A DNA stretch of 64,000 nucleotides, taken from the NCBI GenBank assembly GCA_023061495.1, contig GCA_023061495.1_3643.1; one strand, 5' to 3'. Position 1 is the stretch's first letter. Each line of letters begins with the position of its first letter. Shown here one piece after another: positions 24,276 through 55,480 of the stretch. The notes below the pieces were generated by a model. It was not told the origin of the DNA, ran no database searches, and worked only from the letters and a program-made list of their open reading frames with translations. The translations under genes were made by a program, and so were the position numbers. The stretch is from Escherichia coli. GTDB lineage: Bacteria; Pseudomonadota; Gammaproteobacteria; Enterobacterales; Enterobacteriaceae.

Positions 24276-25273
24276 TGGCAGAGTACAGACGTAGAACATG
24301 GCGACTGTTGTTTGGTCGTCCTGTAGAGCATGGCGGTAAATCAAAAACCAATATCCCAAAATCTGTTGAAAAGAAAGGAGAGAGTGATTCCGGAGTTTAT
24401 GAGATTAGCTCGGACACTGGTGCTGCCAATATAGAGTTTGACATACAAAAGGACAATACTAAAGAGCCAAACAAAGGCTATGTGACAGTTTACAACTTGT
24501 CTGACGATACAGTTAACTATCTAGATATGCATCAAGCTGATGCTCTTGCAGTTATGTTTGAGGCTGGCTATGATAATGAGAACCAGTTGATATTCTCCGG
24601 AACTGTAGAGTTTGTTGAGGACAGATGGGAAGGCCCGACCAGAAAAACTAAGTTCATCTTTGGTGATGGCACTGAGAACATCATTAAGTGCCAAAGCACA
24701 AGATCTTATCAGAAAGGTACACCTCTGAACTCTGTGCTTAATGACCTGCTGAAGGATATGAACTTGCCAAAAGGTAGGGTTGTTGGTTTTGGAAACCAGA
24801 CTCTGCAATACTCCATGGCTTTCTCTGGAAACACTGCAGAGAACCTCCGCAGGTTTGCAAGGCTGACAAACTCAACATTCAGCGTTCAGGACGGTGCTTT
24901 ATATTGGACCAAGGTTGGAAAAAGGTTCAAGGACTCTGTGTTTGAAATAAGTGCAGAGTCTGGGATGCACGGATCACCTACCCCTAAAAACCCAGAACCT
25001 GCTAAAAAACGAAAAGCTAAAGCTGCTGCGAAAGGTGGCACAAGTAAGAAAAAGAAAAACCCGAGAGAGGATGTTGGTCTTACTGTAACAACATGCCTTA
25101 ACGGAGCTATCCTCCCAGAGTCCACCATTTATCTTAAAAGTAGGCAATACACAGGCTTCTATAAGGTGATCACGGTGCACCATAAGGGCACCATAGAGGG
25201 CGGTGATTACACTACAGAGCTTGGCCTTGGGGAAACAATAGGTGGAGTTGTTGACAAAACTGAGGAGGTATAA
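24275..25273 (+). CDS. baseplate hub-type protein (by position)
   Basis: 332 aa; lysine-rich internal segment AKKRKAKAAAKGGTSKKKKNPRE; directly precedes the spike-like gene. Confidence 0.35.
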   Translation: MAEYRRRTWRLLFGRPVEHGGKSKTNIPKSVEKKGESDSGVYEISSDTGAANIEFDIQKDNTKEPNKGYVTVYNLSDDTVNYLDMHQADALAVMFEAGYDNENQLIFSGTVEFVEDRWEGPTRKTKFIFGDGTENIIKCQSTRSYQKGTPLNSVLNDLLKDMNLPKGRVVGFGNQTLQYSMAFSGNTAENLRRFARLTNSTFSVQDGALYWTKVGKRFKDSVFEISAESGMHGSPTPKNPEPAKKRKAKAAAKGGTSKKKKNPREDVGLTVTTCLNGAILPESTIYLKSRQYTGFYKVITVHHKGTIEGGDYTTELGLGETIGGVVDKTEEV

Positions 25274-25950
25274 TGGCAATAAATAGGAAAGATGCTGCCG
25301 TAAGATCCTTTATAGAAAAAATAATGAGGGACTACCACACCAGTATCAGGGCTAGAGTTGTCAGCGTAGATTACAGTATCCCTTCCGCAGCCGTGCAGCC
25401 AATAGCTGAAACCACGTTTGATGACGGAGATGTTGAGAGATACCCTCTTATCTATGATGTGCCAATCCAGGTGATGTCTGCAAACAGTGGGAAGGCAAGG
25501 TTAACACTCCCTATTAAGGCTGGAGATGTTGTAGGATTGCAGTTTTCAGAGAGAAATGAAAACAACAACGATGATCAACAAACTCACGGCCTGTTTCCGG
25601 GGTGGGCAATAACCTCTGTTCATTCAGACTCTAACGCTCTGCAGATCGATCCTGATAATGTAGAGTTATGGAATGATAAGGTTTATTTTAAGCTGACACC
25701 TTCTGGTGATTTTGAGCTTCAAACACCTGGTGGGACATTACGGTGCGACAGTAGCGGGGAGTTTTCTTTCACCAACGGAGCTGCCAATTTACGAGCTGCT
25801 GTGGATGGAAATATTAGAATGAATGGTGCCACAATAGACCCATCTGGTAGAATCATAACTGCTGCTGGTGTGGATTTGGACTCATTCTATGCAGAATATA
25901 AAGGTCATACCCACTCTTGCCCTGATGGTGAGACAAGTGGACCGCACTAA
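25273..25950 (+). CDS. baseplate central spike protein (gpV/gp5-like)
   Basis: 225 aa; C-terminal KGHTHSCPDGETSGPH resembles the His-containing apex of gpV-type spikes; position after hub-type gene. Confidence 0.5.
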   Translation: MAINRKDAAVRSFIEKIMRDYHTSIRARVVSVDYSIPSAAVQPIAETTFDDGDVERYPLIYDVPIQVMSANSGKARLTLPIKAGDVVGLQFSERNENNNDDQQTHGLFPGWAITSVHSDSNALQIDPDNVELWNDKVYFKLTPSGDFELQTPGGTLRCDSSGEFSFTNGAANLRAAVDGNIRMNGATIDPSGRIITAAGVDLDSFYAEYKGHTHSCPDGETSGPH

Positions 25951-25962
25951 TAGAGGGCTTGC

Positions 25963-26778
25963 ATGGCTACGCTTTATAGTGATATATTGATGGACCCACA
26001 GACAGGCGATTTGGCGATAGACAAAGGTCTTGAGTTGATAGACTCAAACCAAGTAAGTCTGCGCCAGCGCCTGTGGATGAGGTTTAATACCTGGAAAGGG
26101 AGCTGGTACTTTGACGAGTTGTTTGGCTTCCCTTATATGGACTTTCTCAGTAAGAAGGTCATGAAGACTGTTCTTGATAACAAGATTATGGAAGTGGCAA
26201 GACAAGAGCCGGATGTGCTAAACATCATAAACTTCCAATCTACTATGGATCGAAGATCGAGAACATATCAAGCGTTCTTTGAGGTTGTTACCAAGGAGAA
26301 CGAGATTGTAAGACTTGCTTTCGTAGGTCTTGATCAGTTTACCTATCCACAGCCTGATGCTGGGACAACCTCTCTCTGTGATGATGAAGGTTGGATTAAG
26401 TGGGCTAATAAACTGTACTACCTGATCAACTTTAGATTGCCTAGAACCGGGGATGCCACATGGTGGAACCAGTATGCCGGTCCTGAGATGGAAAACCCGA
26501 TCCCTGTAGGCTCTCTGTTGACTCAGGATAAAGATCTGCTGATGACTGAGGCAGAACAAACCATTAACCGCAATACCTGGACGCTTGCTCCAGATGAGCG
26601 CGAATATTCTGGTGTTATTGCTACATCTAATGATGAGGCTATTGCCAACCAGTCTGACGTNNNNNNNNNNNNNNNNNNNNNNNNNNNNNNNNNNNNNNNN
26701 NNNNNNNNNNNNNNNNNNNNNNNNNNNNNNNNNNNNNNNNNNNNNNNNNNNNNNGGTCGTGCTATTGATGTTAACTAA
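25963..26778 (+). CDS. baseplate component (C-terminal part crosses an N block)
   Basis: N-terminus MATLYSDILMDPQTGDLAIDKGLELIDSNQVSLRQRLWMRF resembles small baseplate wedge proteins; the ORF continues through the N run at 26661-26754, so the C-terminus and frame are uncertain. Confidence 0.4.
   Translation: MATLYSDILMDPQTGDLAIDKGLELIDSNQVSLRQRLWMRFNTWKGSWYFDELFGFPYMDFLSKKVMKTVLDNKIMEVARQEPDVLNIINFQSTMDRRSRTYQAFFEVVTKENEIVRLAFVGLDQFTYPQPDAGTTSLCDDEGWIKWANKLYYLINFRLPRTGDATWWNQYAGPEMENPIPVGSLLTQDKDLLMTEAEQTINRNTWTLAPDEREYSGVIATSNDEAIANQSDXXXXXXXXXXXXXXXXXXXXXXXXXXXXXXXXGRAIDVN
26661..26754. other. block of 94 N (masked or unresolved sequence)
   Basis: Read directly; lies inside ORF 25963-26778. 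Confidence 1.
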
Positions 26779-30090: not shown

Positions 30091-33000
30091 ATGGCTGATA
30101 TTAAAGTTGTCAGAATTGAATCTCTTCCTGCCACTACCGCAGTGACAGAGGATGATTACCTGGTTGTTCAACAACCAGACCTGACCCGTCGTGTAAAAAT
30201 TGGCGATGTTGTCCATGTGGATGGGACTGTTTCTCATGTAATCTCCTTTAAGGAAGGTGGTAAGTTAAACGGCCCAATGGATTTTGCCTACTTCGAAGAG
30301 GAAGACCTCTACCTGCGTTGGAAAGGCGAATTTCCGCACACTGTTCCTGCACTGTCTTCACCTTACGCTGATGGTGGGATTACCGATGCTGCATGGATGG
30401 TATATACAGATCCGTCCTTAAGGGAGGAGCTGGAATCTACCATTGGTGCATCTATGATCATGACAGCCGAAGGGCAGTCTGTCCAGGATGTAATGGATGT
30501 TACGGTTCAGACAGCCAACGATGCTAAAGCGCTTGCACAGCGGGTAGATTTTGGTACAGTGCATACTGTAGGCGATGTCATTCACCTTGTCAACTTTGTT
30601 GGTCCTGCAGTTATTGAAGAGGGAAGAACCACTAACTACCCTTCTGAAGCAGCTGGTGAAAAATTTCTGAACGGTGTGGTATCTCGTCGTGATACTACAA
30701 CTGTTGATGGTATTTTCCGTGGCGCTACCTCAGGAGCCATGTATACCATTGCAGTAACCAACGGTGTAGCAACAACAAAAAGAATAGCACTTCGTGATGA
30801 ATTTAAACGCCTGGAGGCAAACAATCCAACAAGAACAGTTATCCGTGCTGGAGATGATTTAAACACAGCAGGGTACTTGCAGCTTGATGCAACAGGCCGT
30901 TGGGGTATGTGGAACCAGCAAACAGCCTCGTGGCAACCTCTTGCTATAGAGCAAGGCGGTACAGGAGCCAGAGATGCCGCTGGAGTCCGTATCAATATCG
31001 GTGCTTTCTATAAGCAACGTGCAGCCCTTGAGGCAAATTTTAATATCAATAACTTGACTGGTAATCAGGACGGCATATACTATCAGCCGATGACTGCTAA
31101 TGCAACTGAGGCAAATGGTTACCCTGCAGGTTCTGGTGCTGGTCACTTGATTGTTTGGCAGAACAATGCTAACGGCGGTACAGGTTGTCGTCAGGAATAC
31201 TATCCATTCTCTAACGTGGATGTTTGGTATTTGAGAACCTATCAGGCTAACACAAACCAGTGGACTGCATGGCAGCCGATGGTCAGACCTCGGAATGATG
31301 ACACCTTCAGATCTCATATCGGCCTTGGTAAAAACAACTCTCCTGCTTTCGGGCACCTTTACTTAGCGCAATACTCAGGAGATGTTAAATCTGCTTCAGG
31401 TATTCTCCATGGAGATAAATATAACACTGATGGTGTTCTAGAGCATGGCTATAGGATCTACTCCGAGGTAAGAAACGACAATAAGGCGTGGTTAACAATC
31501 CACCTGCACAAAGGCGCAAAAGGATCTGAAACTCATAGATATTTAGGCTTCCGTGAGGATGGGGTCTTAGATTGTCCTAAATATATGCAGGTTGGTGATC
31601 TGAACGGTCAGCTGGCAAACTGGGGACTTGGAGAATGGATTCGTAGTTCAGGGGCAGAAAGAGGATTCTGGGGTTCCAAGAAAGCCGCCAAGATGGTAGT
31701 CTGGGATGGAGGGATGGACGAGTCCGGTAATGGTACTCTGGAATGGGGTGTTTATAACAACCGGAAGGCCAAGTGGGAACCTTTACCTCAGGCCGCAGGT
31801 GGCACTGGAGCTACAACTTTAGCAGATGCTCAGAATCTGTTCAAAGTTCCTGTAGCGGCAGGCGTAAAAGATTTCTTAACACTGCCAAGAACTGCAGGAA
31901 TGGAAGATGGGAAATACTACCCAATCATCGTTAGAACAGATCCATACTATGCGCCCACAACTGGTACTGATATTACTATAGTTACCAGATCGTCATCTGG
32001 CAGTGACCCTATGAACTGTGCGACCTTACAGTGTCACTATAGAACTGGTGGGTGGACAGACAGAGGGGATTCTTTCCAAGGGGTTATTAATTTCTACCAA
32101 AACGAGAAAGCAATTCTTGGATGTGTATCCCCAACCAGAGGAAAGCAGGAGTATGTTGCATTCTATGTTGAGTCGCGTGCTTTCCCTGTCAGTGTCTACA
32201 CAAGCAGAAACGTTCTTGAGGTATTTACCAGAGAAAATGACTGGCAGGTAGGAAATGTTACTAATAACCAAGATGGTGTCAAGTTTTGCGCCCCTCTTGC
32301 GTCGGATAATTTAAGCCTTGCAATTAAAGGTGATGATGTAACAAACACTAGGATTCTTGCGGAGTTCAAGGGAACACCTGGGTTCTATACAGGCGGTAGT
32401 ACAGATCGGCACTATATAGGCACACCTGACCGAATGGTTCTGATGAGTAAGACAGAAATGCCCCCTGTAGAGATGTGGTACAACGGTCTTAACTACATTT
32501 GCCCGGGTAGCCAAACCACTAGAAAAGCACTGTTCTCTAACGCAGGGTTCCAAGCTGCATCGGAAGGAACAGGGGATCTGATCAACAATACCTTTACCTC
32601 TAAATGCGGTAATGGCGCAAGACTGCAAGGACAGGCAGAGTTCAGATCTACTCCAGAGGCTGGTCAAGTTATTGTTCGTGATGTTGTAGGTTCTGCTCAC
32701 AGATTCTACAACTTCAACAAAGATGGCACTTTCTCAGCTCCTGGTGGTTTTGTATGCCACACTGGTGCAGACTGGAACAACCAGTTTGGGCCTAATAACC
32801 CGTCCAAAATACTGGCTGGTAACGTCAACGGGCCTGAAGGTTCAATGGTTGTTGGCGGGTTGTCTGTGGCGTTTTCTGGAAACTATGCTTTCCAGATGGC
32901 AGGTAGTTTAGATCAGCTGTACACCCGTTCCATAGAGCGGGGTAACCACAGAGCGTGGAACAAAGTTATTCAGCACCGTGGTCAAGGGTTGGGGACTAGT

Positions 33001-34527
33001 GACCTTAACGATTACAAAGCGGATCGCGAAGGTATTTACCATCAAGAGGCAAATGCCAACGCCACAGCGGAAAGACACTACCCACCAGGGAAGCAGATGG
33101 CTGGTACGCTGATCGTGCTTAGAAACTCTGCCAACGAAGGTACAGGTTGTGTCCAGATATATAAAATGTATCTTGGGGGAACGTGGGAAAGGTACTATAA
33201 TAACACTGGCAGCGGAATGAACTGGAGCCCTTGGAAGAGAACGAGCTTCCCAGAAAGTACAACTGCCCCAGTCATGCCTGACCTGTGGTTGCCTTTAACC
33301 TCTAATCTAAAACCTGTACTAGGTGAAGGTGAGATGGTGTTCTCCAGACCTTCTACAGCAACATATTTCACTAAGCGCGGTGTCATGGCTGTTGCACAGG
33401 CAAACCAACCACGTTTCGAAAGAGATGGTCTGCTCATTGAAGGTCAAAGGACAAATCTGATGCTTAACAGTGAAGACCCGAGCAAATGGGGAGCCCAGTC
33501 ACAGATTACGGTCGGCAACACTGTAACAAACACCAACGGCACAAAAGGTGCAAGATTTACAGTAAGCAACGTATCCGGTGTAGAAACAACGGCGTTAAAC
33601 CTGGCTACAGTTCCAGCCACCCGAGGTGCAGATGTAACAGGTGCTGAGAAATTTTGTACTGGATCTATTATTGCAAGAGGTGGTAAAGCTCACCAGAGAC
33701 TGCGTGTAAGATTCGACATGTATAACGGATCCACCACAGTATTCCAGGGTGATGCCTATGTTAACCTGTCAACACTTGAAGTTAAAACAACAGGTGGTGC
33801 AGCTGGGAGAATTAAAGTAAAAGCTGAGAGATGGCAAACAGCCGGACCTGCTTGGATAAGGGTTGTTGCTACGTTTGAGGCAGTGGCCTCTGACATGAAT
33901 ATTGGGTGCCAGTTCCAGATTGCCCCGCCGGAGGGTTCTCAACACGCCGCAGGGGATTGGATTGACGTCGCAATACCTCAGTTTGAGTTAGGATCTTGTG
34001 AGTCCTCGTTTATCCCTACAGGGTCTTCACCAGTGACTAGGGCAGCAGACCTTTGTAAATTCCCAATGACTGATAATTTAGCACCTAGACCGTTCACCAT
34101 CGCCGCTACTGTGGATGCCAACTGGAGAGGTTGGGGAAAAGCTCCTAACGCAGCTCCTAGGGTTATTGATACAGAGGGTCGCGCTGCATTTATCATGGGG
34201 TTTGGCTCTGCAGCGAATATTGCAGAAGATGGTTATCCATATTGCGATATTGGTGGTTCAAACAGACGTGTTTATGAGATGGCTAAAGCACGTAAGTTGA
34301 AGATGGGGTTCAGGATAAAAGAAGATGGTAAAACCTGCTCTTTTGCCAACGGTCTGGTGAGCACGGAAACACAATCTTCTTGGGAATTCCTGGCAGGAGG
34401 CGCTCTCATCCGTCTCGGCGGTCAAACAGCGACAGGAGAAAGACATTTGTTTGGTCATATTAAAGATGTAAGAGTTTGGAACTCTGCATTGACCGATACC
34501 CAGCTTATGATGGAGAGTGTTGAATAA
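30091..34527 (+). CDS. long tail fibre protein with internal repeats
   Basis: 1478 aa; N-terminal anchor domain shared with 26788; internal repeated modules (NNANGGTGCRQEYYPF and NSANEGTGCVQIYKMY; QGGTGAR and AAGGTGAT). Confidence 0.6.
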   Translation: MADIKVVRIESLPATTAVTEDDYLVVQQPDLTRRVKIGDVVHVDGTVSHVISFKEGGKLNGPMDFAYFEEEDLYLRWKGEFPHTVPALSSPYADGGITDAAWMVYTDPSLREELESTIGASMIMTAEGQSVQDVMDVTVQTANDAKALAQRVDFGTVHTVGDVIHLVNFVGPAVIEEGRTTNYPSEAAGEKFLNGVVSRRDTTTVDGIFRGATSGAMYTIAVTNGVATTKRIALRDEFKRLEANNPTRTVIRAGDDLNTAGYLQLDATGRWGMWNQQTASWQPLAIEQGGTGARDAAGVRINIGAFYKQRAALEANFNINNLTGNQDGIYYQPMTANATEANGYPAGSGAGHLIVWQNNANGGTGCRQEYYPFSNVDVWYLRTYQANTNQWTAWQPMVRPRNDDTFRSHIGLGKNNSPAFGHLYLAQYSGDVKSASGILHGDKYNTDGVLEHGYRIYSEVRNDNKAWLTIHLHKGAKGSETHRYLGFREDGVLDCPKYMQVGDLNGQLANWGLGEWIRSSGAERGFWGSKKAAKMVVWDGGMDESGNGTLEWGVYNNRKAKWEPLPQAAGGTGATTLADAQNLFKVPVAAGVKDFLTLPRTAGMEDGKYYPIIVRTDPYYAPTTGTDITIVTRSSSGSDPMNCATLQCHYRTGGWTDRGDSFQGVINFYQNEKAILGCVSPTRGKQEYVAFYVESRAFPVSVYTSRNVLEVFTRENDWQVGNVTNNQDGVKFCAPLASDNLSLAIKGDDVTNTRILAEFKGTPGFYTGGSTDRHYIGTPDRMVLMSKTEMPPVEMWYNGLNYICPGSQTTRKALFSNAGFQAASEGTGDLINNTFTSKCGNGARLQGQAEFRSTPEAGQVIVRDVVGSAHRFYNFNKDGTFSAPGGFVCHTGADWNNQFGPNNPSKILAGNVNGPEGSMVVGGLSVAFSGNYAFQMAGSLDQLYTRSIERGNHRAWNKVIQHRGQGLGTSDLNDYKADREGIYHQEANANATAERHYPPGKQMAGTLIVLRNSANEGTGCVQIYKMYLGGTWERYYNNTGSGMNWSPWKRTSFPESTTAPVMPDLWLPLTSNLKPVLGEGEMVFSRPSTATYFTKRGVMAVAQANQPRFERDGLLIEGQRTNLMLNSEDPSKWGAQSQITVGNTVTNTNGTKGARFTVSNVSGVETTALNLATVPATRGADVTGAEKFCTGSIIARGGKAHQRLRVRFDMYNGSTTVFQGDAYVNLSTLEVKTTGGAAGRIKVKAERWQTAGPAWIRVVATFEAVASDMNIGCQFQIAPPEGSQHAAGDWIDVAIPQFELGSCESSFIPTGSSPVTRAADLCKFPMTDNLAPRPFTIAATVDANWRGWGKAPNAAPRVIDTEGRAAFIMGFGSAANIAEDGYPYCDIGGSNRRVYEMAKARKLKMGFRIKEDGKTCSFANGLVSTETQSSWEFLAGGALIRLGGQTATGERHLFGHIKDVRVWNSALTDTQLMMESVE

Positions 34528-34956: not shown

Positions 34957-35547
34957 ATGTTTTTATGGGAAAGGCCTAGATACCTTCCAGATATTAGACT
35001 GGAGCTACTGGCAGACATCGTTACATTTAAAAGCCCGTTTACAGGTAAGACGCAAAAAGTCACCTATGCCACGCCTAACTGGAAAGGCACTTTGACGGTT
35101 TCCAATATCAGCGAGTCTCAGTTGTTGGAGCTTAAAAGTTTTGTTGATCAGGTTTACAAAGATGGAAATATTTTTCTTATCAAGGCTTATGGGCATTCAG
35201 TGACCTCCAACGAGCCAATCGCTCTTGGACCAACTGGTAACGACGATTTTTTGAAGACGGTTGGTTGGGAGCCTAACAGGGATATAGCCAGAGCTGGGGA
35301 TAAAATATCTGTCAATGATGAGTTGAAAGTGGTGACAGCCTCAGTACGAAGTGATGGTGTTGGGGCCGCTGTTATAAACATATCCCCAAGACTTAGGAAA
35401 CCTATTGCCGCAGGGGATACCATGAAAATAATAACTCAATCTCCGAAGGGTAGATTTCATATCCGAGATCTTTATAAAATTAAGCAAAAGGTTGATGCTA
35501 TGCAGAAAGGTGATAATATAGTTATCAACTTCTTTGAGGATTTCTAA
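34957..35547 (+). CDS. minor tail protein, lambda M-like (tentative)
   Basis: TQKVTYATPNWKGTLTVSNISESQLLELKSFVDQVYKDGN resembles the lambda gpM core as I remember it; first of a run ending in the J-like gene. Confidence 0.4.
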   Translation: MFLWERPRYLPDIRLELLADIVTFKSPFTGKTQKVTYATPNWKGTLTVSNISESQLLELKSFVDQVYKDGNIFLIKAYGHSVTSNEPIALGPTGNDDFLKTVGWEPNRDIARAGDKISVNDELKVVTASVRSDGVGAAVINISPRLRKPIAAGDTMKIITQSPKGRFHIRDLYKIKQKVDAMQKGDNIVINFFEDF

Positions 35548-36100
35548 GATGATAAGAGCGCCATTAGATAATTTATTTCTTGAAAAGCTAGAGCTTGATG
35601 GTGTTGAGATCTTAATTGCTGCAAAGCTAGAGCTGCCAACAGGGACTGTCAGGGTGTGCTCAGGAACTGGTGTTGTGGTTATTGAGGGGCAACATTTTAT
35701 AGGGATAGGTGGATCAGCAACATTGACTGCTGTGTCTGAGAAAGATGCCACCAACTTCGGATCTGTGGTAGCAACATTGAACGGGTTTGATCCTAAATAT
35801 GTTGGCGATCTACTGAAGACGGAGTACTCTGGTTGCCGTGCCACGTTATATATCACCGCTATGGAGAATGGTTTACCTGTCACAACTAATGGCTTGTTTG
35901 ACGGCCTTATAACAGACATGGCTATTCAGACAGGGGAGAATAGTGCTCTGTCCATATCCATCTCTTCCATCTTCAACAGCTGGTTAAGAGGTTTTCCTTA
36001 TCGATACACAGAGGAAAGCCATAGCTCAAGAAACGATAACGACAGATTTTTTAAATATGTGGATCAGGTGGCGAGCCGCCCGATCATTTGGGAGGTTTAA
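35534..36100 (+). CDS. minor tail protein (L-like position)
   Basis: 188-aa ORF overlapping its neighbours; no motif recognised. Confidence 0.3.
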   Translation: MRISKMIRAPLDNLFLEKLELDGVEILIAAKLELPTGTVRVCSGTGVVVIEGQHFIGIGGSATLTAVSEKDATNFGSVVATLNGFDPKYVGDLLKTEYSGCRATLYITAMENGLPVTTNGLFDGLITDMAIQTGENSALSISISSIFNSWLRGFPYRYTEESHSSRNDNDRFFKYVDQVASRPIIWEV

Positions 36101-36525
36101 TGAGCACACATCCTCGTTTAGTAGACTGGCAAGAAAGGTTGTGGAAAGTATTTGACGAAGAAGCCACCGTCCCGTTTGAATGGGGATTCCACGATTGTTG
36201 CACTTTTGCTGCTAAGTGTGTTGATGCCCAATACGGAACAGATTTTCTTTCTAACTTTGAAGGAACGTATAAAACAGAGTTGGAAAGCAAGAGATGGTGC
36301 ATGCTTCGTTTCAAAACCACACACCTACCTACTGTTTTTGATCTCTTTTTGACTCGACTGGATACTCCTAAACAGGTCCAGCGTGGTGATATTGTTATTT
36401 TCGAAGGTCTGAACGGCCTCACCGCTGGTGTGTTTTGGAACAACCAGATTTGGGCGAAAGGTGATAAAGGGATCTTTACGTTCGATATGAAAGATTCTAT
36501 CGTTGTTGATGTCTGGAGGTATTAA
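36088..36525 (+). CDS. tail assembly protein with NlpC/P60-like Cys motif (lambda gpK C-terminal-like)
   Basis: EWGFHDCCTFAAKCV and VQRGDIVIFEG compare with the HGVTDCYTLFRDAY and AQPGDVLLC segments of lambda K as remembered. Confidence 0.5.
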   Translation: MGGLMSTHPRLVDWQERLWKVFDEEATVPFEWGFHDCCTFAAKCVDAQYGTDFLSNFEGTYKTELESKRWCMLRFKTTHLPTVFDLFLTRLDTPKQVQRGDIVIFEGLNGLTAGVFWNNQIWAKGDKGIFTFDMKDSIVVDVWRY

Positions 36526-39500
36526 TGCCAATTGCAATGATTGATAACATCGTTGCTTCTGCAAGATCTTCAAGTTATGACTGGAACGCATCCAAGGCAG
36601 CTCTGGCTGACAGCCTGAACACTGTTACCACCAGAACTCTGGATAAGATTTTCGAGGGCAACAAATCTTACAGAAGTCAGCAAGATAGACAAAAGCTTCT
36701 CAGATCTTCTGCTGCACCTTGCTCTGTAGTATATGGAAAGACACGCACATCTGGATTGCTTGCGTTTTTGGAGCAGGACAGAGACAGAACCCTTCATTGT
36801 GCTATTGTTCTTGCCAATCACCCTCTGGAAGGTATAGAAGATATACTTATCGACGGTAATCCTATTTCCTCGTATGGAGATTTGGTATCGTGGGAGCTGC
36901 ATAACGACAGAAAAACCTCTGATCCTTTCATGGGCACACACTGCCCATCGTGGTCACCGGACATGATAGGTAGAGGGATCAGTTGGCTACGAGTCAGCTT
37001 CAGGTTTGACCCTAACAAGTTTCCTTTTGGGTTGCCAAACGTCACACTCGTCAAGGTTGGTAAAAAATGCNNNNNNNNNNNNNNNNNNNNNNNNNNNNNN
37101 NNNNNNNNNNNNNNNNNNNNNNNNNNNNNNNNNNNNNNNNNNNNNNNNNNNNNNNNNNNNNNNNNNAAAAAAATGCTATGATCCTCGCACCAGTAAAGAG
37201 GTGTATACCAATAACGCTGCCTTGGTGATTCTGGACTATTTAAGAACATACCTTAAATGTCCTGACGAAACCATCAACTGGGAGTCCTTCAAGGAGGCTG
37301 CCAACATATGCGACGAGGCTGTAAGAAACGCAGACGGAACCAGCGAGCGTCGTTACACCATTAATGGTGAGTTTGACATGGATGAAGCACCAGCGAGTAT
37401 TATGGCAGAAATGCTGAAAGCTTGTGGTGCAGATCTTAGCTATGTAGCTGGTAAGTATGGTCTGCTGGTAGGTGCATACTATGGCCCGGCAACAATGACA
37501 CTGAGTGAGGACTGTGTTTGCGGTGAGGTTAAGATCTATCCGGAAGCCTCTTTCGACAAGAGATCGAACACAATAACTGGCAGATTCACTAGTCCAACCA
37601 AAGGGTATTCTGAAACAGATTTTCCATCAGTGTTTGTCCCAGAGTGGATAGAGAAGGATGGAGAAAGAAAGATAATTGATATAGATTATCGTTTTGTTAC
37701 CAGCCCTTATCAAGCTCAGCGTGTTTCTGCAATCTTCTTAAGACGTGCCCGAGCTGGCAGGATTATTGAAGTAACCTGCAATATGCGAGGTTTTAAATTT
37801 AAACCTGGGCGTTACGTTACGATGAATCTTCCAAGTATTGGTATAGTGGGCCAAGAAATGAGGGTTCTTGAATGGGAGTTCACCAAAAAGGGCGGTGTCA
37901 AGGTAAAACTCCGTCAAGATGCTAAAGAGTGGAATGATGCCACAGGGCAACTTCCGGATTCTGGAGATGTGGATATTCCGATATCCCCGTCCGGCGTAGC
38001 TCAACCGCAAAACTTCAGATACTCTGTTCTTCAAGCTGGGGAAGTAACTCATGGTGTTTTGGCTTGGGACAACGTTGGAACTTATGCTCAAAATATTGTG
38101 CAGGTAAGAAAGAACGGAGAGATTATTTGGACAGCACAGACAGTTGAGCAGTTTGTCCGCGTAGAAGGATTGACCAAAGGGTCATACACAGCAACCGTGG
38201 TTGCAACATCTTATAAAGGTGGTGTATCTCCAGAAGCTTACTGCGAGTTTAACATTCAAGCACCTGAAGCTCCTGTTTCTGTAGAAGTTAAGCAGGGATA
38301 CTTTGCTATCACCTTGATTCCGCACAGCAGGGACTTAGCAAGTGTAAGCACCCAGTATGATTTTTGGACATCTGGTATGACAAGGTTGCCGGACACAAGT
38401 GATGCAACCGTTACTTCAAAAGCCACCCGTATGGGTGTTGGTTCAACTTGGACATCTGAAGGTCTGCAGAACGATAAGATTTATTATTGGTATATTCGAA
38501 CCACAAACGCTTTTGGTAGTTCTCAGTTTGTAGAATGCGCTGCACGCTGCTACACCTCTATTGAAGATTTGATGCCTCAGATAGATGCTGAATTTAAAAA
38601 GACAGAAACTTATAAAGAGTTGATGAGCACTTTAGATTCCTCTATCGAGGAGGTTGAAAATCGTGTCACAGAACTTAACAGGTACATGGATGGTAGAGTT
38701 GACGAGGCTTTTGACCGCATGGAAGGTGAGTTCTCTAGAGTAGACAAGCTGTATGCTCAGTTGGGGGATAGGGTTGGAATATTCATCCAAGAAACCCACG
38801 ACAACTTCCAGGACGTTAATGGAACGCTTACCACTCTAGACCAGAAACTGGTAGCCACTCAGAACAAGTTTGCAGATGATCTTTCTAAAGAAAGTGGTAA
38901 GCTGACTTCTCTAATACAGACCACCAACAAAGCTACAACCGATCTGTTAAATCAGAAAACTGAAGCTTTGGACGAGAAGATTGTTTCAACAAGGGGTGAA
39001 TTGGAAGATGCTTTGGCACAGGAAAGCTCTGAGCTGAACTCTCTGATTGTTTCAACCAATAAAACGACTACAGATCTCCTTAATCGGAAAACCGAGGCTT
39101 TAGACAATAAGCTGACAGCAACGAAAGGTGAGTTGACCAACAATCTGCAAAATGAGAGTGCTAAACTATCATCCTTGATTGAGTCAACCAACAAATCCAC
39201 CACTGATCTTCTTAATAAGAAAACAGAGGCGTTGGATGAAAAACTGGTTGCTGCACAGGGCGAGTTGACTGAGCAGATCGGAGATGTTGAAAAAGGCTAT
39301 CTGGCTGGTGATAAGAGCCTAGAGGGCAAGTTGAATACTCAAAGATCTGAGTTGGATGCGAGCATTCTGAGCACTAACCAGGCCACTGTGGACTTGCTGA
39401 ACAGAACTTCTGAGACTCTTGACCAGAAGATTAGCCAGACCAACGCCACAGTGTCCAAAAACTACACCACGCTTGATGGTAAGATAAACACCGCCAAGTC

Positions 39501-40776
39501 TGATCTTAATACGTTGATTTCTACCACCAACAAGGCCACAACTGACCTATTGAATCAGAAAACGGCAGCTTTGACTGAGCAGTTAACCACTGCTAAAGGG
39601 CAGATTACAACCAACACCAATAACATTACCGGGTTGGATAATAAGCTGACTCAGACTAAGAAAGAATTGTCTGCGAATATTTCTGAAACTAATAAGTCTA
39701 CTGTTGACCTTATTAATGGCACAGCGTCAGCTATTCGTCAAGAACTTGCTGTTGCTAAGCAGGAGATTATTGATGATGTTGGAGATGTGACCGAACTCAG
39801 AGCTGCAGTGGCTACAACATCTAAGGCTGTGACCGACTTAGAGGGCAAAGTAAATGCTCAATGGGGCACAAAAATACAGGTAGACTCCGCAGGGAATAAG
39901 TATGTGGCAGGTATCCAGTTAGGCATGGAAGGCTCTGGAGGCCAAGTTCAGTCATATTTCATGGTTAGCGCAAACAACTTTGCGGTATACAACCCAGGCA
40001 ATGGAACAGCAACCCTTGCTTTCGCAATCAAGAACAACCAAGCGTTCTTGAAAGACGCTTTTATAGAGAACGGCACGATCTCTTCTGCCAAGATCGCGCA
40101 AGAAATTTCGTCAAACAACTACGATGGCAACGGGTACCACAAATACGGTTGGTATATTAACAAGAACGGGCACGCCCAGTTTATGGATGTGTGGGTGAAA
40201 GGTAACATCAACGCTAGTGCAGGTAACTTCACAGGGGCAGTTAACGCCACCAGTGGTACCTTCCGTGGAGATGTTTATGCCAACAATGGTAGCTTTAGAG
40301 GGACCATAGATGCAACAGGAGGTACATTCCGTGGACGTGTAGAAGCTTCCGTTATCCGTGCTAACCAGTTCGAAGGTGCGATTGTTGCACACAGGACTTA
40401 CGGAGATTGTGCTCCAGTATATAACTCGCAGCAAAGGGTTTGCCGTTGGAGGTGGAGATATGTGGACAACGTGCAAGGCCAAGGTAAAAACGTAACATTC
40501 TTCTTTAAACTGAACGGTACTCGTGCCAACTCTCAACTAAATGCGTGGATAGCTGGTCACCAACTACTTGCTGGCAAGAAGTACGGAAACGATAACGATG
40601 GCATGTGTGCAGTTGGGATAACAGGTCTAGGTGAACAAACTATAGACATTATTATCGAGATTTACACACCATGGTCAACAGGGAACGTGACAGGCATTAC
40701 AATATCTTGTCCTACAGTCGTTGTAAGTCGTTCTAACTCAAGTTTCCAAGGTCCTTGGAATGAGTCTCACGACTAA
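36525..40776 (+). CDS. central tail fibre / host specificity protein, lambda J-like (spans an N block; carries a coiled-coil repeat array)
   Basis: Several segments match lambda J as remembered: KYVAGIQLGMEG...NNFAVYNPGNG, QAPEAPVSVEVKQGYFAITLIPH, IYYWYIRTTNAFGSSQFVECAA, and an N-terminal PLEGIEDILIDGNPIS. Track ORFs 36525-37181 and 37006-40776 are joined across the N run 37071-37166; the exact junction is unknown. Confidence 0.65.
37071..37166. other. block of 96 N (masked or unresolved sequence)
   Basis: Read directly; lies in the N-terminal region of the J-like gene. Confidence 1.
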
Positions 40777-40782
40777 CAGTAA

Positions 40783-40812
40783 AGCCCCGCTTCGGCGGGG
40801 TTTATTTTTATG
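40783..40812 (+). terminator. rho-independent terminator
   Basis: ccccgc-ttcg-gcgggg stem followed by TTTATTTTTA, directly after the J-like gene. Confidence 0.8.
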
Positions 40813-40880
40813 CTCAGATTGACTATTGTTACAAAATTTGGTAAAATACCTTGTAGAGATTTTCATACCGGAGGAGTGAC

Positions 40881-42371
40881 GTGGCTAAGTATGGATTGAC
40901 AGAGGCTGGTTTCGTTATACCAACCCTAAATGACCTAATCGTTGAAACTAAGCAAAGCCTGATCCGTGCTTTTGGCGAAAACTTCAACGTACAGAGTAAC
41001 TCCGTTGCAGATAAGCTGACCACTATCTTCAACGAGCGAGAGTATCAACTTATTCTTATGGCAGCATCTGTATACGCATCGCAGACGCTGTATGGGGCAG
41101 AAGGTATTTACCTGGATGAGCTTCTTGGAAGACAGGGTATTTACCGAAGAGGCCGTTCTAAATCATCAGGTACCTGCCAGTTGACAATCAACACAACTGT
41201 GCCATACAATATGATTTATGATTCCAAAACTTATACGCTGGACAGTGGCAACTTTGTTCTTAGCAACGATGTGCAGGTGGCGGGAAATCTTATTGCTCAC
41301 AGAATAAACGCTCCAGACCTAAGAATTGGGAAATACAACTTTCAAATTACCAACCAGACAGACGGAAGTATCAAAACAAAAAGTCTGGTTTTAACAGATA
41401 AGGCTCTGGACTCTTCTGATTTGCCAAGCTTTTACGGTGAGATTAAGCAATTCATTGTCGATAATACAACCCTGCTGAATGATGATTTAATTCAGATAGA
41501 TATGTTGACAGGGACGTTGTGGATAGGGTACAATTCGAATCTTGATCAAGTTGGACTTAATAGCAGGGTAGATTTCAGAGTATCCCCGATTGTAGGGGAA
41601 AGAACTATCACCCTAGATGTTATCGCTAACGAGGCTGGTGAGCTGTCAAGAGAGGCAGAAACCGTGACAACAATGTCACCTACTCCCAGTGGATTTATCA
41701 AGCTTACCAACCGAGAAAGATTCAATGAGGGCAGGGATGTTGAGAAAGACTCTGAGTATCGCTTAAGAGCTTCCAGCACTAAACAGCTGACATCTAAAGC
41801 TACCCGTCCTGCAATTCTTAGCGCTGTAAGCGAGGTGAAAGGTGTTGAGAAAGTAAGAGTGTTCTCTAACAACACCGATAAAACGGATGCGAAAGGTATA
41901 CCACCTTATAAGTTTCAAGTGGTGGTGTTTGGTGGTGCAACAGAGGATATCTGTCAGGCGCTGTATCAAACCATAGCTTGCACAAACAGAACTTATGGGA
42001 ATATCTTCTACGATATTACCACATCAGACGGTCAGACTGAAAGGATTTATTACTCCAAGGCAAATACCTACCGCCTAGATGTAAGAATTACCTACTCAGG
42101 TGCTGCGCTTTCCACAACCGAAAAAGATGCCATTGTAGAGGCTCTTTTGCAGGTTGTTAACGGACTGGATGTTGCAGATACGTTGTACAATATCCAATTG
42201 GTTGGTGCTGCATCAGCTGCTGTGTCAATAGGCAGATTTAACAGACTTGTGATTCAAGTAAAACCTGTGGGAGCCTCTGATGAAGCTTACACTACAAACG
42301 ATATTGTTGCAAACATGACTGAGGTGTTTGACCTAGACGAAAGTAATATAACTTTCCAACAAACTATTTAA
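40881..42371 (+). CDS. baseplate wedge protein (Baseplate_J/gp6-like, tentative)
   Basis: 496 aa; N-terminus LTEAGFVIPTLNDLIVETKQSLIRAFGENF resembles the start of Baseplate_J-family proteins. Confidence 0.35.
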   Translation: MAKYGLTEAGFVIPTLNDLIVETKQSLIRAFGENFNVQSNSVADKLTTIFNEREYQLILMAASVYASQTLYGAEGIYLDELLGRQGIYRRGRSKSSGTCQLTINTTVPYNMIYDSKTYTLDSGNFVLSNDVQVAGNLIAHRINAPDLRIGKYNFQITNQTDGSIKTKSLVLTDKALDSSDLPSFYGEIKQFIVDNTTLLNDDLIQIDMLTGTLWIGYNSNLDQVGLNSRVDFRVSPIVGERTITLDVIANEAGELSREAETVTTMSPTPSGFIKLTNRERFNEGRDVEKDSEYRLRASSTKQLTSKATRPAILSAVSEVKGVEKVRVFSNNTDKTDAKGIPPYKFQVVVFGGATEDICQALYQTIACTNRTYGNIFYDITTSDGQTERIYYSKANTYRLDVRITYSGAALSTTEKDAIVEALLQVVNGLDVADTLYNIQLVGAASAAVSIGRFNRLVIQVKPVGASDEAYTTNDIVANMTEVFDLDESNITFQQTI

Positions 42372-47206: not shown

Positions 47207-47665
47207 GTGATGACTAAACCAGTTATCCCTCTTGATATTTGGGCCAATCAGGATGTTGTGCTTGAAAATACGGGAGAATTGAATAAGTCCCAACCAAAAA
47301 AAGAAGAGAGATTGAAAGGTTGGGATATGACACAAAGAGTGGCATGTGAGGTTGTTAACTTTGAACTTCACATGCTTTCTGCGTGNNNNNNNNNNNNNNN
47401 NNNNNNNNNNNNNNNNNNNNNNNNNNNNNNNNNNNNNNNNNNNNNNNNNNNNNNNNNNNNNNNNNNNNNNNNNNNNNNNNNGGGTGTTGAAGATGTAAGG
47501 ATAGCAAACCGCTTCAGAACCACCTACAGAGAATCAAGAGTATACCCTGGGCATGTAATGTGCTCCGGCAATTACGCCTATAAACACCCGTATCAAGGTG
47601 ACTATTGGACTGGTGCTATTCAAAAATTTGTAAACGGTCAATGGATTACCATATCTTATGCTTAA
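47207..47665 (+). CDS. tail fibre paralogue (middle masked by an N block)
   Basis: N-terminus KPVIPLDIWANQDVVLENT...KGWDMTQRVACEVVNFELHML and C-terminus IQKFVNGQWITISYA parallel ORF 45154; true length unknown because of the N run 47386-47481. Confidence 0.5.
   Translation: MMTKPVIPLDIWANQDVVLENTGELNKSQPKKEERLKGWDMTQRVACEVVNFELHMLSAXXXXXXXXXXXXXXXXXXXXXXXXXXXXXXXXXGVEDVRIANRFRTTYRESRVYPGHVMCSGNYAYKHPYQGDYWTGAIQKFVNGQWITISYA
47386..47481. other. block of 96 N (masked or unresolved sequence)
   Basis: Read directly; inside the fibre paralogue. Confidence 1.
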
Positions 47666-52700: not shown

Positions 52701-55480
52701 TCATGACCGTGCTGAGATCAAACATGGATGGGACATCCATGTCTATGCAAGTTCCAGTAACAAACGGGTACAAACGTGTTGTGATGATCATTAAGTGCGA
52801 CTTAATAGGTAAGCAAGTTCTTGCAGAAAACGGAACCTCAACACATTTATTCGAGACTGCTCTGCATTATCAGTTTGCTGATTCACCTTTTGCAGGGGAT
52901 AAGAGAATATCTGATACAGACAATGCTCGATGCAAGAAATTTATGCTTGGTGGTGGATGGTGGTGGTATGAATTTGATTTAACAGACAAATTCACCGACA
53001 CGTCTAAAGTGGTGACAGGGCTTCGTCTAGATCTTGGCGAAAACATGCACAAAAGTGTTTGTGATGGCACCTACGGTGACCCAACAATCTACTTAAAGTA
53101 TGTTTCTTTTGAGCACCCAGAGGATGTCGTTTATGGTCCAAAACTGAGACTGTTTGGCAATTGGATTGCTAAAGACAGGGCAGGTATGGGTAAAAAGGTG
53201 AGAGGGTTCTTAGTTGATGCAGGAACAGAAGACATGTTGGTTAATGCAGTGTGGCCTGAATTACCGGGAACTCAGTGGGACAATTCTGCTAAGTCTATAA
53301 ACTGGTTCAATATCCACAGAGCTATGTGGGCAACTAACTGCTATCTGTGGAAAGAGTTGAATGACGGCGCTTTCGGGTTTACTGGTGGCAGAAGAATGGC
53401 AATCATTTGCTGGACAACGCTGCAGAGATGTTATGACCATGACTACGAGATTGGAGGCAGGGCATGGAAAAATATAAGGGATAGAATCATAACTAACTTT
53501 GCAGATCCTAACGGTGGCGGGGCGTATGGTTTCGACTGCAGCAGGCTTATCCATTTGAACGGATCTTCGGCCTATAAGAAAGAAGGCTACTCTGGGGCCA
53601 TGATTGAATGGGGCTTGGTAAAAGATTCTCGTGTGTTGATGGGTCAGCAACTTGCTGCTGCAATAGGACCGAACGCAGTACAATCTGTTAAACCAGCATG
53701 GTTCGATATCCCATTATGGTCCTCTGGAACACCAGGAACTGCTGCAATCAACCCTACCACTGGGGATCTGGAAATCTCCTGGGAGGACCTGAAGCAGGTC
53801 GGTGGCTGGGATAAGGCAGGGTACCAGGTGCAATGGTGGAGATCTGACGGATCATTGGCGGCTGATGAGTTTGTTAAGGACAATTTCTACACCATGTCCT
53901 CTGCAAAAGCACAGCAATTGTTTGGTCAGGCCACTCCGTCAACGATCACCATGTCCATGTGCTGTAAAGACACCAGGACTGGAGCTCTGGGGCCAAGGGT
54001 TGCTAAAGTTTTCTCAGGTATTAAATGGAATCTCCCTGTTCAAAGTGTTTCATGGAAGCAAATAGGTGATAACAAGCTGCTGGTTACCCCAGCTTGTCAG
54101 TTCAGCGCAACTCTTAACGTTGATCCTGCTGTTGCGGCAAACTCAGCTAAAGCTTCTGACTTCTCTGTGTCTAACACTGCTATGGCAGATGTGAGGAAGA
54201 TTGACACGCTGAACGCCAGAATTACCTGTAAAAACACTTATGGCACATTCCAGATCATCAACAACTTCACAGATGCTGATTCTAAGGTAGTGAGGACAGC
54301 AAGCCAAACTCTGAGTTTAGGAACTCTGGCCTACGCGGCCCTGATCACTGAACAGTCGGCAACACTCCAAGGAGGCGGTGTAGGCAAGTCCATTGCAACA
54401 CCTGTGTGGAAGCCAAATGAGTGGGTTGTGTTTGATTTAACTGTGGACTTCTCCAGCGATAATAACTGGACATGGGTAAGGAATTNNNNNNNNNNNNNNN
54501 NNNNNNNNNNNNNNNNNNNNNNNNNNNNNNNNNNNNNNNNNNNNNNNNNNNNNNNNNNNNNNNNNNNNNNNNNNNNNNNNNNNTTCTTGTCACAACTGAT
54601 GGGTGGCCCAAACTCAGTTAGTGATAGCCAAGACTCCACTGACCCGAGTGTGTTTCAGGTGGGTAAAACTCACCCAGAAACTGGGGCACCGTTGCCTGAC
54701 AGGAAGTATGCTTTGGTTTGCATCTCTTACGGAAAAGCAGATGTAACCTTCTCAGGGACACACACATATAACGGCACTTACAACTTCTCTAAAAAGTACA
54801 GCCTCAAGGCAGGTAACATTGTAGACGAGGTTGGTGCGTTGTATAATCCAGGAAACGGGATAGGGATTGTAGGTGGTAAACTGCAGATGCAGGAACCTTC
54901 TATTACCCCTTCCAATGTGCCAGGAATCAGAAAGACTTGGGAAAGTAGTAATACCAACATTGCAACAGTGGATGCTACCACAGGGCTGGTAACATTTAAA
55001 GCTACTGGGAATGTCACTATAAAGTTTGTAGTTACAGATGATGCAGGGCGCAAAACGTCTTCAACATCTTTTACTGTCAAACAGATGGCACCACAGTGGA
55101 GAATGTGGATAGGTACAGCAACAAACGGGGCATATCCTAATCCGGCAGGGACTTCTGGTATGAAGACTTTCTCTACAAGCAAGCCGATGGAGTACGGCAG
55201 CGGTCCTAAGGTAGGGCAGATGGTGTACTTTGGTGCGTATATTCCTGAAATTATAGGGCTTCCGAGAAGTCAGCTTCAGTTGCTGTTTGGGGCTGGTGTT
55301 GACGATCTTGCCACTTTCGGGTATAGAGACAACATCGATGCTGCAAGGAGTTCAGGATGGGTAGGGTTCAGAATGGAGTCTGGAAAGGAAGGCAGGATTC
55401 TAGGGACAGCCTCTATAGGTGTTATGTTCCCTGGTGACCAGCAGTATCGTCTAGAAGCCTACGCAACCTTTTCTCGTTAA
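49745..55480 (+). CDS. giant structural/adhesin-like protein (about 1900 aa; spans an N block)
   Basis: Single ORF ending at a strong bidirectional terminator; Gly/Asn/Thr/Trp-rich; the N run 54486-54583 lies inside, so continuity across it is assumed. Confidence 0.5.
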   Translation: MLPIPLLKLGRHFLDKRGGIKELAVLSYPIDNSDGTSTTVPYVNSLAILFDDGQLNITGYNRFGECRTGDLDTINYPNEAAWNVDHVWRADRAFVIRTFDNQFFYIGCTAGLIGSDAAGGNDVCVREWTPLPEQIVKGLHLDTHPERLIEVMGGINNTVWVIAEAEGTGILNLYGSGNNTYGSLHVDKNQHATPVKIGETSENPETGPWKNPSINCEVHDNSVIFGGPRGFWIAGYDFLRNNSRNDLVWPPVQITRNDLRGIPADEEWKGFMCGPNGAIIATQRMHKPNDQQLVNVFYGQDVWGDDTWRSLNITYTHEVIMARGYGTSGIFFNNGTKQYRGFSRNLCNDIGAQSANNSPRANFIHYQALATAKYVEQRLPVSWTESVYFQGIHREGFLGTFTVVNGKLWWSGIPRGSFAGSNNLFGGRLNSQGFTEVPENWYKNVPVDSWGVDDIFDVNGVSSVSNIYIGDTVKMKLKPQPEGATFIIDKIELVNAAGTVVTDANYQFSANWNHGGANEVVVTQYNRNVNRRGLYSVKITYHDKHGTGRTHTTRTLNWNTIVPAYPSDGKWHTVGRNKQFHVNDTVYFGLNAAQPAVEGDTSYMVRLHRMDAGSVTYDVTQEIYNQRRNTYDNLVQTQALWEFNPNGRGGKMLQVNEQNGTSLTVHEHPNPWPDPGKPNSGARTLKIVSHDVGYFGIRWEATVRYADGTTNNIGITLGGTSEDNSLKIAYTPRGISIDNMDVVRNGYGDVNIKVTLGEHLGGERIIMYAFDHDPRTNGTYADQAWSYLISAPEPNTKEFYYGMKRNVCKKTGTHDWIAICVKDERTAWNEPVNRWFVGIPTRSDKYVEEYIVCMGGTNLNMCWNEDANNKYSDYDYMRDYSCNQWFNQPGYADRQARVNPAIFTDTQVFLTKQANEVQTFKNKYDPNKWFYNCYGAFFWGPGELPNGGSCFEAATYASDRFMGQVKKYKIIPGPETLGNAVDPYIVMTVLRSNMDGTSMSMQVPVTNGYKRVVMIIKCDLIGKQVLAENGTSTHLFETALHYQFADSPFAGDKRISDTDNARCKKFMLGGGWWWYEFDLTDKFTDTSKVVTGLRLDLGENMHKSVCDGTYGDPTIYLKYVSFEHPEDVVYGPKLRLFGNWIAKDRAGMGKKVRGFLVDAGTEDMLVNAVWPELPGTQWDNSAKSINWFNIHRAMWATNCYLWKELNDGAFGFTGGRRMAIICWTTLQRCYDHDYEIGGRAWKNIRDRIITNFADPNGGGAYGFDCSRLIHLNGSSAYKKEGYSGAMIEWGLVKDSRVLMGQQLAAAIGPNAVQSVKPAWFDIPLWSSGTPGTAAINPTTGDLEISWEDLKQVGGWDKAGYQVQWWRSDGSLAADEFVKDNFYTMSSAKAQQLFGQATPSTITMSMCCKDTRTGALGPRVAKVFSGIKWNLPVQSVSWKQIGDNKLLVTPACQFSATLNVDPAVAANSAKASDFSVSNTAMADVRKIDTLNARITCKNTYGTFQIINNFTDADSKVVRTASQTLSLGTLAYAALITEQSATLQGGGVGKSIATPVWKPNEWVVFDLTVDFSSDNNWTWVRNXXXXXXXXXXXXXXXXXXXXXXXXXXXXXXXXXFLSQLMGGPNSVSDSQDSTDPSVFQVGKTHPETGAPLPDRKYALVCISYGKADVTFSGTHTYNGTYNFSKKYSLKAGNIVDEVGALYNPGNGIGIVGGKLQMQEPSITPSNVPGIRKTWESSNTNIATVDATTGLVTFKATGNVTIKFVVTDDAGRKTSSTSFTVKQMAPQWRMWIGTATNGAYPNPAGTSGMKTFSTSKPMEYGSGPKVGQMVYFGAYIPEIIGLPRSQLQLLFGAGVDDLATFGYRDNIDAARSSGWVGFRMESGKEGRILGTASIGVMFPGDQQYRLEAYATFSR
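54486..54583. other. block of 98 N (masked or unresolved sequence)
   Basis: Read directly; inside the giant ORF. Confidence 1.

Follow-up and report, generated by a model that had tools for sequence, protein, structure and literature searches.

A 44-residue coiled-coil module repeated in the stalk of a Vequintavirus J-like tail fibre, with discrete length alleles among related phages

Repeated units inside a tail fibre gene raise the question of whether they form an unstable DNA array, able to change fibre length by recombination, or an old protein repeat maintained by selection. This question was addressed for a J-like tail fibre gene present in a 64,000-nucleotide (nt) stretch of DNA (NCBI GenBank assembly GCA_023061495.1, contig GCA_023061495.1_3643.1, from Escherichia coli), referred to below as the window. 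The source phage is a Vequintavirus, an rV5-like E. coli myovirus, and its nearest relative is Escherichia phage vB_EcoM-ECP32 (ECP32). An earlier note on this DNA had described tandem repeats of ~41 amino acids (aa) in the coiled coil of the J-like protein, comprising at least three near-identical units followed by more degenerate copies, and had suggested that the resulting nucleotide array could expand or contract. We find that the repeats are real and that, as a property of the present-day DNA, their instability is very doubtful.

The repeat within the stalk of the J-like protein has a period of 132 nt, or 44 aa. A repeat search returned a family of 60-nt segments spaced 132 nt apart with 73% identity, and the autocorrelation of the DNA over positions 38893-39288 was 0.63 at lags 132 and 264 compared to a background of 0.29 (z ~5.3), so that the nucleotide-level periodicity on which the earlier note had staked its claim is present. 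The period that it had given is not: at lag 123, which corresponds to ~41 aa, the autocorrelation over the same interval was 0.25-0.28, and the autocorrelation of the protein was maximal at lag 44 (0.62). A profile hidden Markov model (HMM) was built from the units and run on the six-frame translation of the window; it identified six units and one half unit in the J-like protein, and the motif was found nowhere else in the window (Table 1). U1 to U3 are strictly tandem (38893-39288) and U4 to U6, which are the degenerate copies, are set apart by spacers (39343-39789). The consensus motif proposed previously was correct, and eight columns of the unit are invariant in all six copies (L4, I8, T11, N12, T15, D17, L18 and N20). 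An open reading frame (ORF) of 83 aa on the minus strand (38952-39203) overlaps U1 to U3; we take it as a by-product of the codon composition of the repeat and not as a gene.

Table 1. Features of the J-like tail fibre gene, in positions of the window.
Feature	Position	Strand	Remarks
J-like tail fibre gene	36525..40776	+	orthologue of rV5 gp37; PHROG 31; colinear with ECP32 QDB73665 (1381 aa)
Ig_J_second domain, aa 547-652	38269..38586	+	last beta-sandwich before the stalk; Pfam PF24489, E = 1.6e-30
Alpha-helical coiled-coil stalk (predicted), aa 644-1078 (~435 aa)	38560..39864	+	AlphaFold2 monomer helix; hydrophobic periodicity
Hyperdivergent allele cassette, aa ~670-1030	38638..39720	+	length and sequence differ between Vequintavirus J classes
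14-aa segment, two heptads, RMEGEFSRVDKLYA	38716..38757	+	alignment; present in source-phage class, absent from rV5/FV3
Half unit	38818-38886	+	profile HMM
U1 (44 aa), SGKLTSLIQTTNKATTDLLNQKTEALDEKIVSTRGELEDALAQE	38893..39024	+	absent from rV5/FV3 and FFH2 classes
U2 (44 aa), SSELNSLIVSTNKTTTDLLNRKTEALDNKLTATKGELTNNLQNE	39025..39156	+	absent from rV5/FV3 and FFH2 classes
U3 (44 aa)	39157..39288	+	orthologue of rV5/FV3 first full unit
U4, degenerate, after 18-aa spacer	39343..39474	+	profile HMM
U5, degenerate, after 7-aa spacer	39496..39627	+	profile HMM
U6, degenerate, after 10-aa spacer	39658..39789	+	profile HMM
Phage_Tail_Tip domain, aa 1059-1199	39805..40227	+	distal to the stalk; Pfam PF09327, E = 1.8e-38

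The three tandem units are far from near-identical. Pairwise identity among U1, U2 and U3 is 61-64% for the protein and 62-64% for the DNA; identity at third codon positions is 0.36-0.43, and the same codon is used at only 10-12 of 27-28 conserved residues. Synonymous differences are saturated (proportion of synonymous differences, pS, 0.72-0.79), with a proportion of nonsynonymous differences (pN) of 0.24-0.27. Units share exact in-register runs of at most 6-9 nt, and exact direct repeats in the coil as a whole reach 12 nt at most. Efficient homologous recombination usually requires roughly 20-30 nt of exact identity. Tandem Repeats Finder, applied to positions 37000-42000 with a minimum score of 30, reported no array in the region, and for this reason the periodicity had to be demonstrated by autocorrelation and by the profile HMM. 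Two hallmarks of a variable-number tandem repeat (VNTR) or contingency locus were looked for: adjacent units that are near-identical with long exact matches were not found, nor was copy-number polymorphism in close relatives (~15 phage records at least 95% identical; 40 of 129 cluster members). The units are probably the product of an old duplication under constraint, in which synonymous sites have been randomised and the signature has been kept by purifying selection.

The number of units was then compared between phages with a 1501-nt stalk query run against phage records. The query span was 1500-1501 nt in ~15 records, all at least 95% identical (ECP32, ECML-10, BP9, YN3), 1195 nt in ~54 records (rV5, FV3) and 955 nt in several dozen records (FFH2, Murica, CM1). 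The corresponding J-like proteins have 1381 aa and six units in the source phage, 1279 aa and four units in rV5 and FV3, and 1199 aa and three units in FFH2. Compared to the source phage, rV5 and FV3 are without exactly 88 aa, in register, which corresponds to two units. The first full unit of rV5 and FV3 matches U3 over its whole length with 73-76% nt and 80-82% aa identity (72% nt for the U5 orthologue pair), and for U1 and U2 the identity to the first rV5 unit is only 59-64%. As U3 and the first rV5 unit are orthologues along the full length, U1 and U2 are the extra units; as U1 and U2 differ from U3 more than the orthologues differ from each other, the comparison suggests that the duplication is older than the split of the alleles and that rV5-type alleles have lost two units.

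Within a class, the number of units did not vary. The ~15 records of the six-unit class all had the same span, and no unit-number variant was seen among the 40 members read of a 129-member cluster at 90% identity, the three tandem units being kept throughout. Among 15 members of this cluster that were listed, 13 have 1381 aa; the other two are truncated by frameshifts that lie downstream of the repeats, and they retain the three tandem units. The best 120 of 2116 homologous proteins all belonged to the 1279-aa class or the 1381-aa class, or were truncations. Comparison of repeat number across relatives, as the earlier note had proposed, thus separates classes with 6, 4 and 3 units and reveals no variation among close relatives. 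Its suggestion of expansion and contraction holds historically, in that whole units have been gained or lost, but finds no support in the DNA as it stands today; the identity of the units (62-64%), the exact matches of at most 9 nt in register and the constant copy number in the close relatives examined all speak against the recombination-prone nucleotide array that it envisaged.

Two further observations concern records that match this region. In Escherichia phage V18 (NC_041937; 1182-3925), the J-like gene is shorter by 1039 nt, so that the entire coiled coil is gone and the reading frame is shifted; a further 55 nt are missing downstream. We considered this deletion as a contraction of units and rejected it, as the junction shows a microhomology of 1-2 nt and is not unit-mediated. 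The distal fibre may be dispensable in this isolate, or the record may contain assembly errors or a laboratory artefact. Eighteen unannotated records (MG0656xx; 'Campylobacter phage A142, A141, C2, D1 ...'), labelled as phages of C. jejuni, are 80-97% identical to the region; the Campylobacter labels may be wrong, or the sequences may come from contaminating coliphages.

The stalk differs from the rest of the gene in its history. In sliding windows, nucleotide identity to rV5 is 92-97% over aa 1-660 and 1040-1260, and 54-78% over aa ~670-1030; the identity of the coil to that of FFH2 is 44-69%. Between the source phage and rV5, pS is 0.82 and nonsynonymous divergence (dN) is 0.15 in the coil (aa 670-1030), compared to a pS of 0.21-0.25 and a dN of 0.002-0.006 in the flanks. 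The coil of the source phage is 98-100% identical to that of ECP32, and in the N-terminal third the distances to ECP32 and to rV5 are about the same (92-97% identity). Phage NHEP1 combines a six-unit stalk with an FV3-like C-terminus, the C-terminal allele assorting independently. This mosaic pattern points to exchange of the stalk as a cassette through homologous recombination in the conserved flanks. The length classes are ancient, deeply diverged alleles and not recent products of slippage. Allelic variation of three large fibre genes of the Vequintavirinae has been noted previously (PMC8594841). Upstream of the J-like gene, another large fibre gene (30091-34527) encodes 1478 aa here, ~1269 aa in its ECP32 counterpart (ECP32DNA_00038, 3810 nt) and 1272 aa in rV5 (gp41); from these lengths it appears to be another length-variable or allelic fibre gene at the locus.

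The gene that carries the stalk is listed as two ORFs (36525-37181 and 37006-40776). It is interrupted by a run of 96 N (37071-37166) followed by a 10-nt duplicate (37167-37176) of the preceding sequence; dropping positions 37071-37176 restores an intact ORF of 4146 nt encoding 1381 aa, colinear with the 'tail fiber protein' of ECP32. The apparent split is an artefact of the N run and the duplicate. The N run as a real site of insertion or frameshift was rejected, since its flanks are contiguous in ECP32 and the rebuilt ORF is intact. At the DNA level the gene region is 98% identical to ECP32, and it has matches in 117 phage records. The window contains four N runs, each 94-98 nt long (26661-26754, 37071-37166, 47386-47481 and 54486-54583). 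In three cases the 300-nt flanking sequences directly adjoin each other in ECP32 or overlap by up to ~8-10 nt, which suggests that artificial gaps or masks were placed in intact genes (ORF 25963-26778, the J-like gene and a gene for a 1911-aa Ig-like fibre). The run at 47386-47481 replaces 684 nt of ECP32 sequence.

The identification of the protein as J-like, and the placement of coiled-coil repeats in it, were both upheld by domain matches and by the helical periodicity described below. The protein falls into PHROG 31 ('central tail fiber J'), with an alignment that spans aa ~187-1239. The Ig_J_second domain scores 106 bits (cutoff 27) and aligns to residues 666-844 of lambda J by phmmer; the Phage_Tail_Tip domain scores 132-134 bits (gathering cutoff 22). 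An Ig_J match (PF24421, aa 493-545) reaches 24 bits, below the gathering cutoff of 29, and no Pfam domain was found in aa 1-490, where N-terminal gp27-like hub domains were looked for. The tail-tip domain matches the solved chains of the lambda J C-terminal region and of an F2-pyocin fibre, and the Ig and tip domains also match other J-like chains. Just past the tail-tip domain, at 40216-40350 (aa 1196-1240), four copies of a short repeat, each of 11-12 aa, lie in tandem (SAGNFTGAVNAT, SGTFRGDVYAN, NGSFRGTIDAT and GGTFRGRVEAS); they resemble beta-helix or fibre-tip repeats. For the rV5 orthologue gp37, the rV5 study reports similarity in HHpred to the 43 kDa hub protein of MuSO2 (3CDD) and detection by mass spectrometry as a virion protein (PMC3606486).

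About 400 residues separate the Ig_J_second domain from the Phage_Tail_Tip domain. Their hydrophobic period is 3.67 residues over aa 755-886 and 3.64-3.65 over the whole coil; over aa 755-886 the power is 3.23 at 11/3, which none of 2000 shuffles reached, and 0.00 at 7/2. The stalk therefore has the period of hendecads (11/3 = 3.67) and not that of heptads (3.5). Because hydrophobic residues recur every 11/3 residues, one 44-aa unit would equal four hendecads of alpha-helical coiled coil. With unit position 4 set as a, the a positions (4, 15, 26, 37) are L, T, L and L/V/I, the e positions (8, 19, 30, 41) are I, L, I/L and, at position 41, mostly L/I/V (Y in U4, T in U5), and the d positions (7, 18) are mostly L; a and e are filled by L/I/V in nearly every hendecad. 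Apolipoproteins A1/A4/E are built from helical repeats of 11 or 22 residues, and a weak Pfam match to this family was obtained on a segment of the coil (29-30 bits, gathering score 90). An AlphaFold2 monomer model, built from a shallow alignment of 6 sequences and used for secondary structure only owing to its low confidence (mean predicted local distance difference test, pLDDT, 51; predicted template modelling score, pTM, 0.25), is helical over aa 644-1078 with three short breaks (aa 806-811, 891-895 and 1051-1053). Coiled coils made of hendecads run almost straight, with a slight right-handed twist (PMC4786415); with four hendecads per module a nearly straight coil is implied, and by homology to J-like fibres the stalk is probably trimeric. 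A search of PDB sequences with the coil alone gave a single weak match, to the P22-type tail needle gp26 (E = 0.0046), which we took as generic coiled-coil similarity and not as homology.

Combined, these observations lead us to favour, with moderate confidence, an account in which ancient amplification of a selectively maintained 44-residue module sets the length of the stalk and the resulting alleles are swapped by recombination in the flanks. The stalk would connect the Ig/FN3-like domains to the distal tail-tip domain and would have been lengthened long ago through tandem duplication of the module, of which six copies survive here. Purifying selection would keep the eight-residue signature in all six copies while synonymous sites randomise. 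Vequintaviruses would hold discrete stalk alleles of 6, 4 or 3 modules that differ by whole modules or by heptads or hendecads (88 aa, 14 aa), and these alleles would pass from one genome to another as a cassette, through homologous recombination within the conserved flanks. The helical segments of ~435, 333 and 253 aa would measure roughly 65, 50 and 38 nm if fully extended at ~0.15 nm per residue. The outcome would be a differing reach of the distal tip domain, through slow change of length at the level of alleles and not through active slippage. Several points weigh against this account. The mean pLDDT of the monomer model is 51 and its helix breaks may be artefacts; we infer the oligomeric state and the extended geometry, as well as the effect of stalk length on tip reach, and any bearing of stalk length on host range would be hypothetical. 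The polar TNKxTTDLLN segment puts Thr at the core positions a and h and could be a non-canonical element. Synonymous saturation leaves the direction of change unsettled between loss of U1 and U2 in rV5 and their gain in the lineage of the source phage, and the alignment gaps to FFH2 are partly not multiples of 7 or 11.

Three other explanations were weighed. That the units form a recombination-prone, VNTR- or contingency-like DNA repeat, whose expansion and contraction on a short time scale would give fibre-length variants within populations, we consider very unlikely. The difference of exactly two in-register units between related phages and the DNA periodicity at lag 132 are what such a repeat would leave, but units 62-64% identical, with a longest in-register run of 9 nt that is far below ~20-30 nt, and on which Tandem Repeats Finder is silent, offer little substrate for it. 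Moreover, only three discrete query spans exist (1501, 1195 and 955 nt), in classes split by saturated synonymous divergence; every relative examined with three tandem units keeps all three, the two short cluster members being frameshift truncations, and the one large deletion observed, that of V18, takes out the entire coil at 1-2 nt of microhomology and is not unit-mediated.

The other two explanations accept an old protein repeat and differ on what its copy number does. Each unit could be a docking or structural module acting through the polar TNKxTTDLLN, which might form a layer of polar or ion-binding residues in the core, break the coil in the manner of a beta-layer, or serve as a site for another virion protein or a chaperone; the number of copies would then set valency and not length. 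Five of the eight invariant positions are polar (T11, N12, T15, D17, N20), the signature persists in the alleles of rV5 and FFH2 although silent sites are saturated, and a search of 1.84 billion representative proteins with the unit profile gave no matches other than Vequintavirus J proteins; in addition, 44 equals 6 x 7 + 2, and insertions of two residues into heptads can make beta-layers (PMC4786415). The clean 11/3 periodicity without heptad signal argues against this, as does the sequence of the unit, which reads K-A-T-T-D-L and does not match the published beta-layer motif [aliphatic]-A-T-K-[polar]-[DE]; a beta-layer as the primary model (44 = 6 x 7 + 2) was rejected on these two grounds. 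The low-confidence AlphaFold2 model runs helix through the motif in U1 and in U3 to U6, with a break only in U2 (aa 806-811), and any partner protein is hypothetical. We regard the docking module as unlikely, although less so than a helical region that folds back into an antiparallel bundle or hairpins, where unit number would alter the thickness or stability of the stalk and not its reach. The latter would account for the three breaks in the monomer helix and for the Gly-containing spacer between U3 and U4 (GYLAGDK). These breaks come, however, from a low-confidence model, and artefactual folding back is common when trimeric fibres are predicted as monomers. The RBPseg atlas describes homologous J-like fibres as trimeric coiled coils of elongated shape (PMC12143355), and the thin fibres of rV5, reported as ~70 nm long (PMC3606486), could be accommodated by a stalk extending over ~50 nm together with the terminal domains. 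Folding back thus seems to us quite improbable.

The position of the J-like protein in the virion is a separate matter. Just after the tape measure gene (20552-22888), the window encodes a canonical baseplate hub (24275-25270, phrog_196) and, next to it, a protein with a phi92-type spike N-domain (25273-25947, PF18352); in phi92, the hub and spike proteins occupy the tail axis (PMC13450770). Because a hub and a spike of this kind are also encoded, an axial position of the J-like protein as a trimeric 'central fibre' is doubtful, the name coming from homology only. BASEL annotations call the protein a lateral tail fibre. Immediately upstream of its gene lie genes for a Dit-like protein (34957-35547, phrog_1302), a phrog_2048 tail protein and a protein with domain of unknown function DUF6950 (module 34957-36522), and wedge genes lie downstream; the upstream set constitutes a second, siphovirus-tip-like module in this myovirus. 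Together with these neighbours the J-like protein could make up a fibre of its own, with origins in a siphovirus tip, for which the ~70-nm thin fibres of rV5 are one candidate; its reach would be set by interchangeable stalk alleles with 3, 4 or 6 copies of the Vequintavirus-specific module, and TNKxTTDLLN would perhaps be a new element of the coiled-coil core. We hold this composite proposal only tentatively and judge it somewhat improbable as a whole.

The stalk length of a receptor-binding fibre would set the reach of its tip through O-antigen or capsule, and alleles with 6, 4 or 3 modules in otherwise ~95%-identical phages would give a natural series for testing reach and for engineering fibre length. 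There is also a lesson for the scanning of genomes: protein repeats with saturated silent sites should not be taken for unstable DNA repeats. Coiled-coil stalks of variable length are already known in general terms for J-like fibres, and the advance is incremental. In the RBPseg atlas, fibres of classes TC5 and TC9 match the present protein in their architecture: the N-terminus is a beta-sandwich like that of central fibres, a large coiled coil of variable length follows, and the C-terminus is beta-helical. One such fibre, with 'large coiled-coil domains', comes from the Vequintavirinae (PMC12143355). In the passages of the literature consulted, those of that atlas included, we found neither the 44-residue unit nor its hendecad register nor the 6/4/3 copy classes described. 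The unit profile, searched against 1.84 billion representative proteins, gave two matches, both Vequintavirus J proteins (5 and 4 matched stretches); as a 44-position profile has limited power, its absence elsewhere is weak evidence.

Among known systems, the closest in domain order are lambda J and the J-like central tail fibres (PHROG 31; PDB 8iyk, 8xcj), which share the order of Ig/FN3-like domains, tail-tip domain and C-terminal region, preceded by a putative hub-like N-terminal region, and also an upstream Dit-like gene; the sequence matches to lambda J in the Ig and tail-tip domains are significant. In lambda J, however, the Ig_J_second and tail-tip matches abut at about residue 844, whereas ~400 aa of coiled coil lie between them here, and the source phage, a myovirus, encodes a hub and a spike of its own, so that the position in the virion may differ. 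The J protein of the Seuratvirus (Queuovirinae) siphovirus vB_Eco_SLUR26 (LR025198, 1040 aa) is homologous on both sides of the stalk (LMPQID.EFKKTETYKEL ... AVVDLEGNVNAQWGAKVQVDS.G.KYVAGIQLGMEGSGG), with ~47% aa identity overall, but its coil has only ~110 aa and no detectable 44-aa units (best domain i-Evalue 0.04). The homology on both sides indicates an exchange of J modules between siphoviruses and Vequintaviruses, and the Vequintavirus stalk would be an expansion of a Seuratvirus-type coil. In the J protein of phage mEp021 (MH706966, 1727 aa), an independent tandem helical array occupies the same part (aa ~1000-1300, protein autocorrelation 0.53 at lag 36); its 36-aa unit (…RLDQAIADETxARTxAISGVNASISxLDKKTDASVK…) is unrelated in sequence and does not match our unit profile, which suggests that repeat-built J stalks arose more than once. 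Hendecad coiled coils in the stalks of trimeric autotransporter adhesins share the period of 3.67 residues and hydrophobic residues at a, d, e and h (PMC4786415), but show no sequence homology to the Vequintavirus unit, which carries an invariant polar signature of its own.

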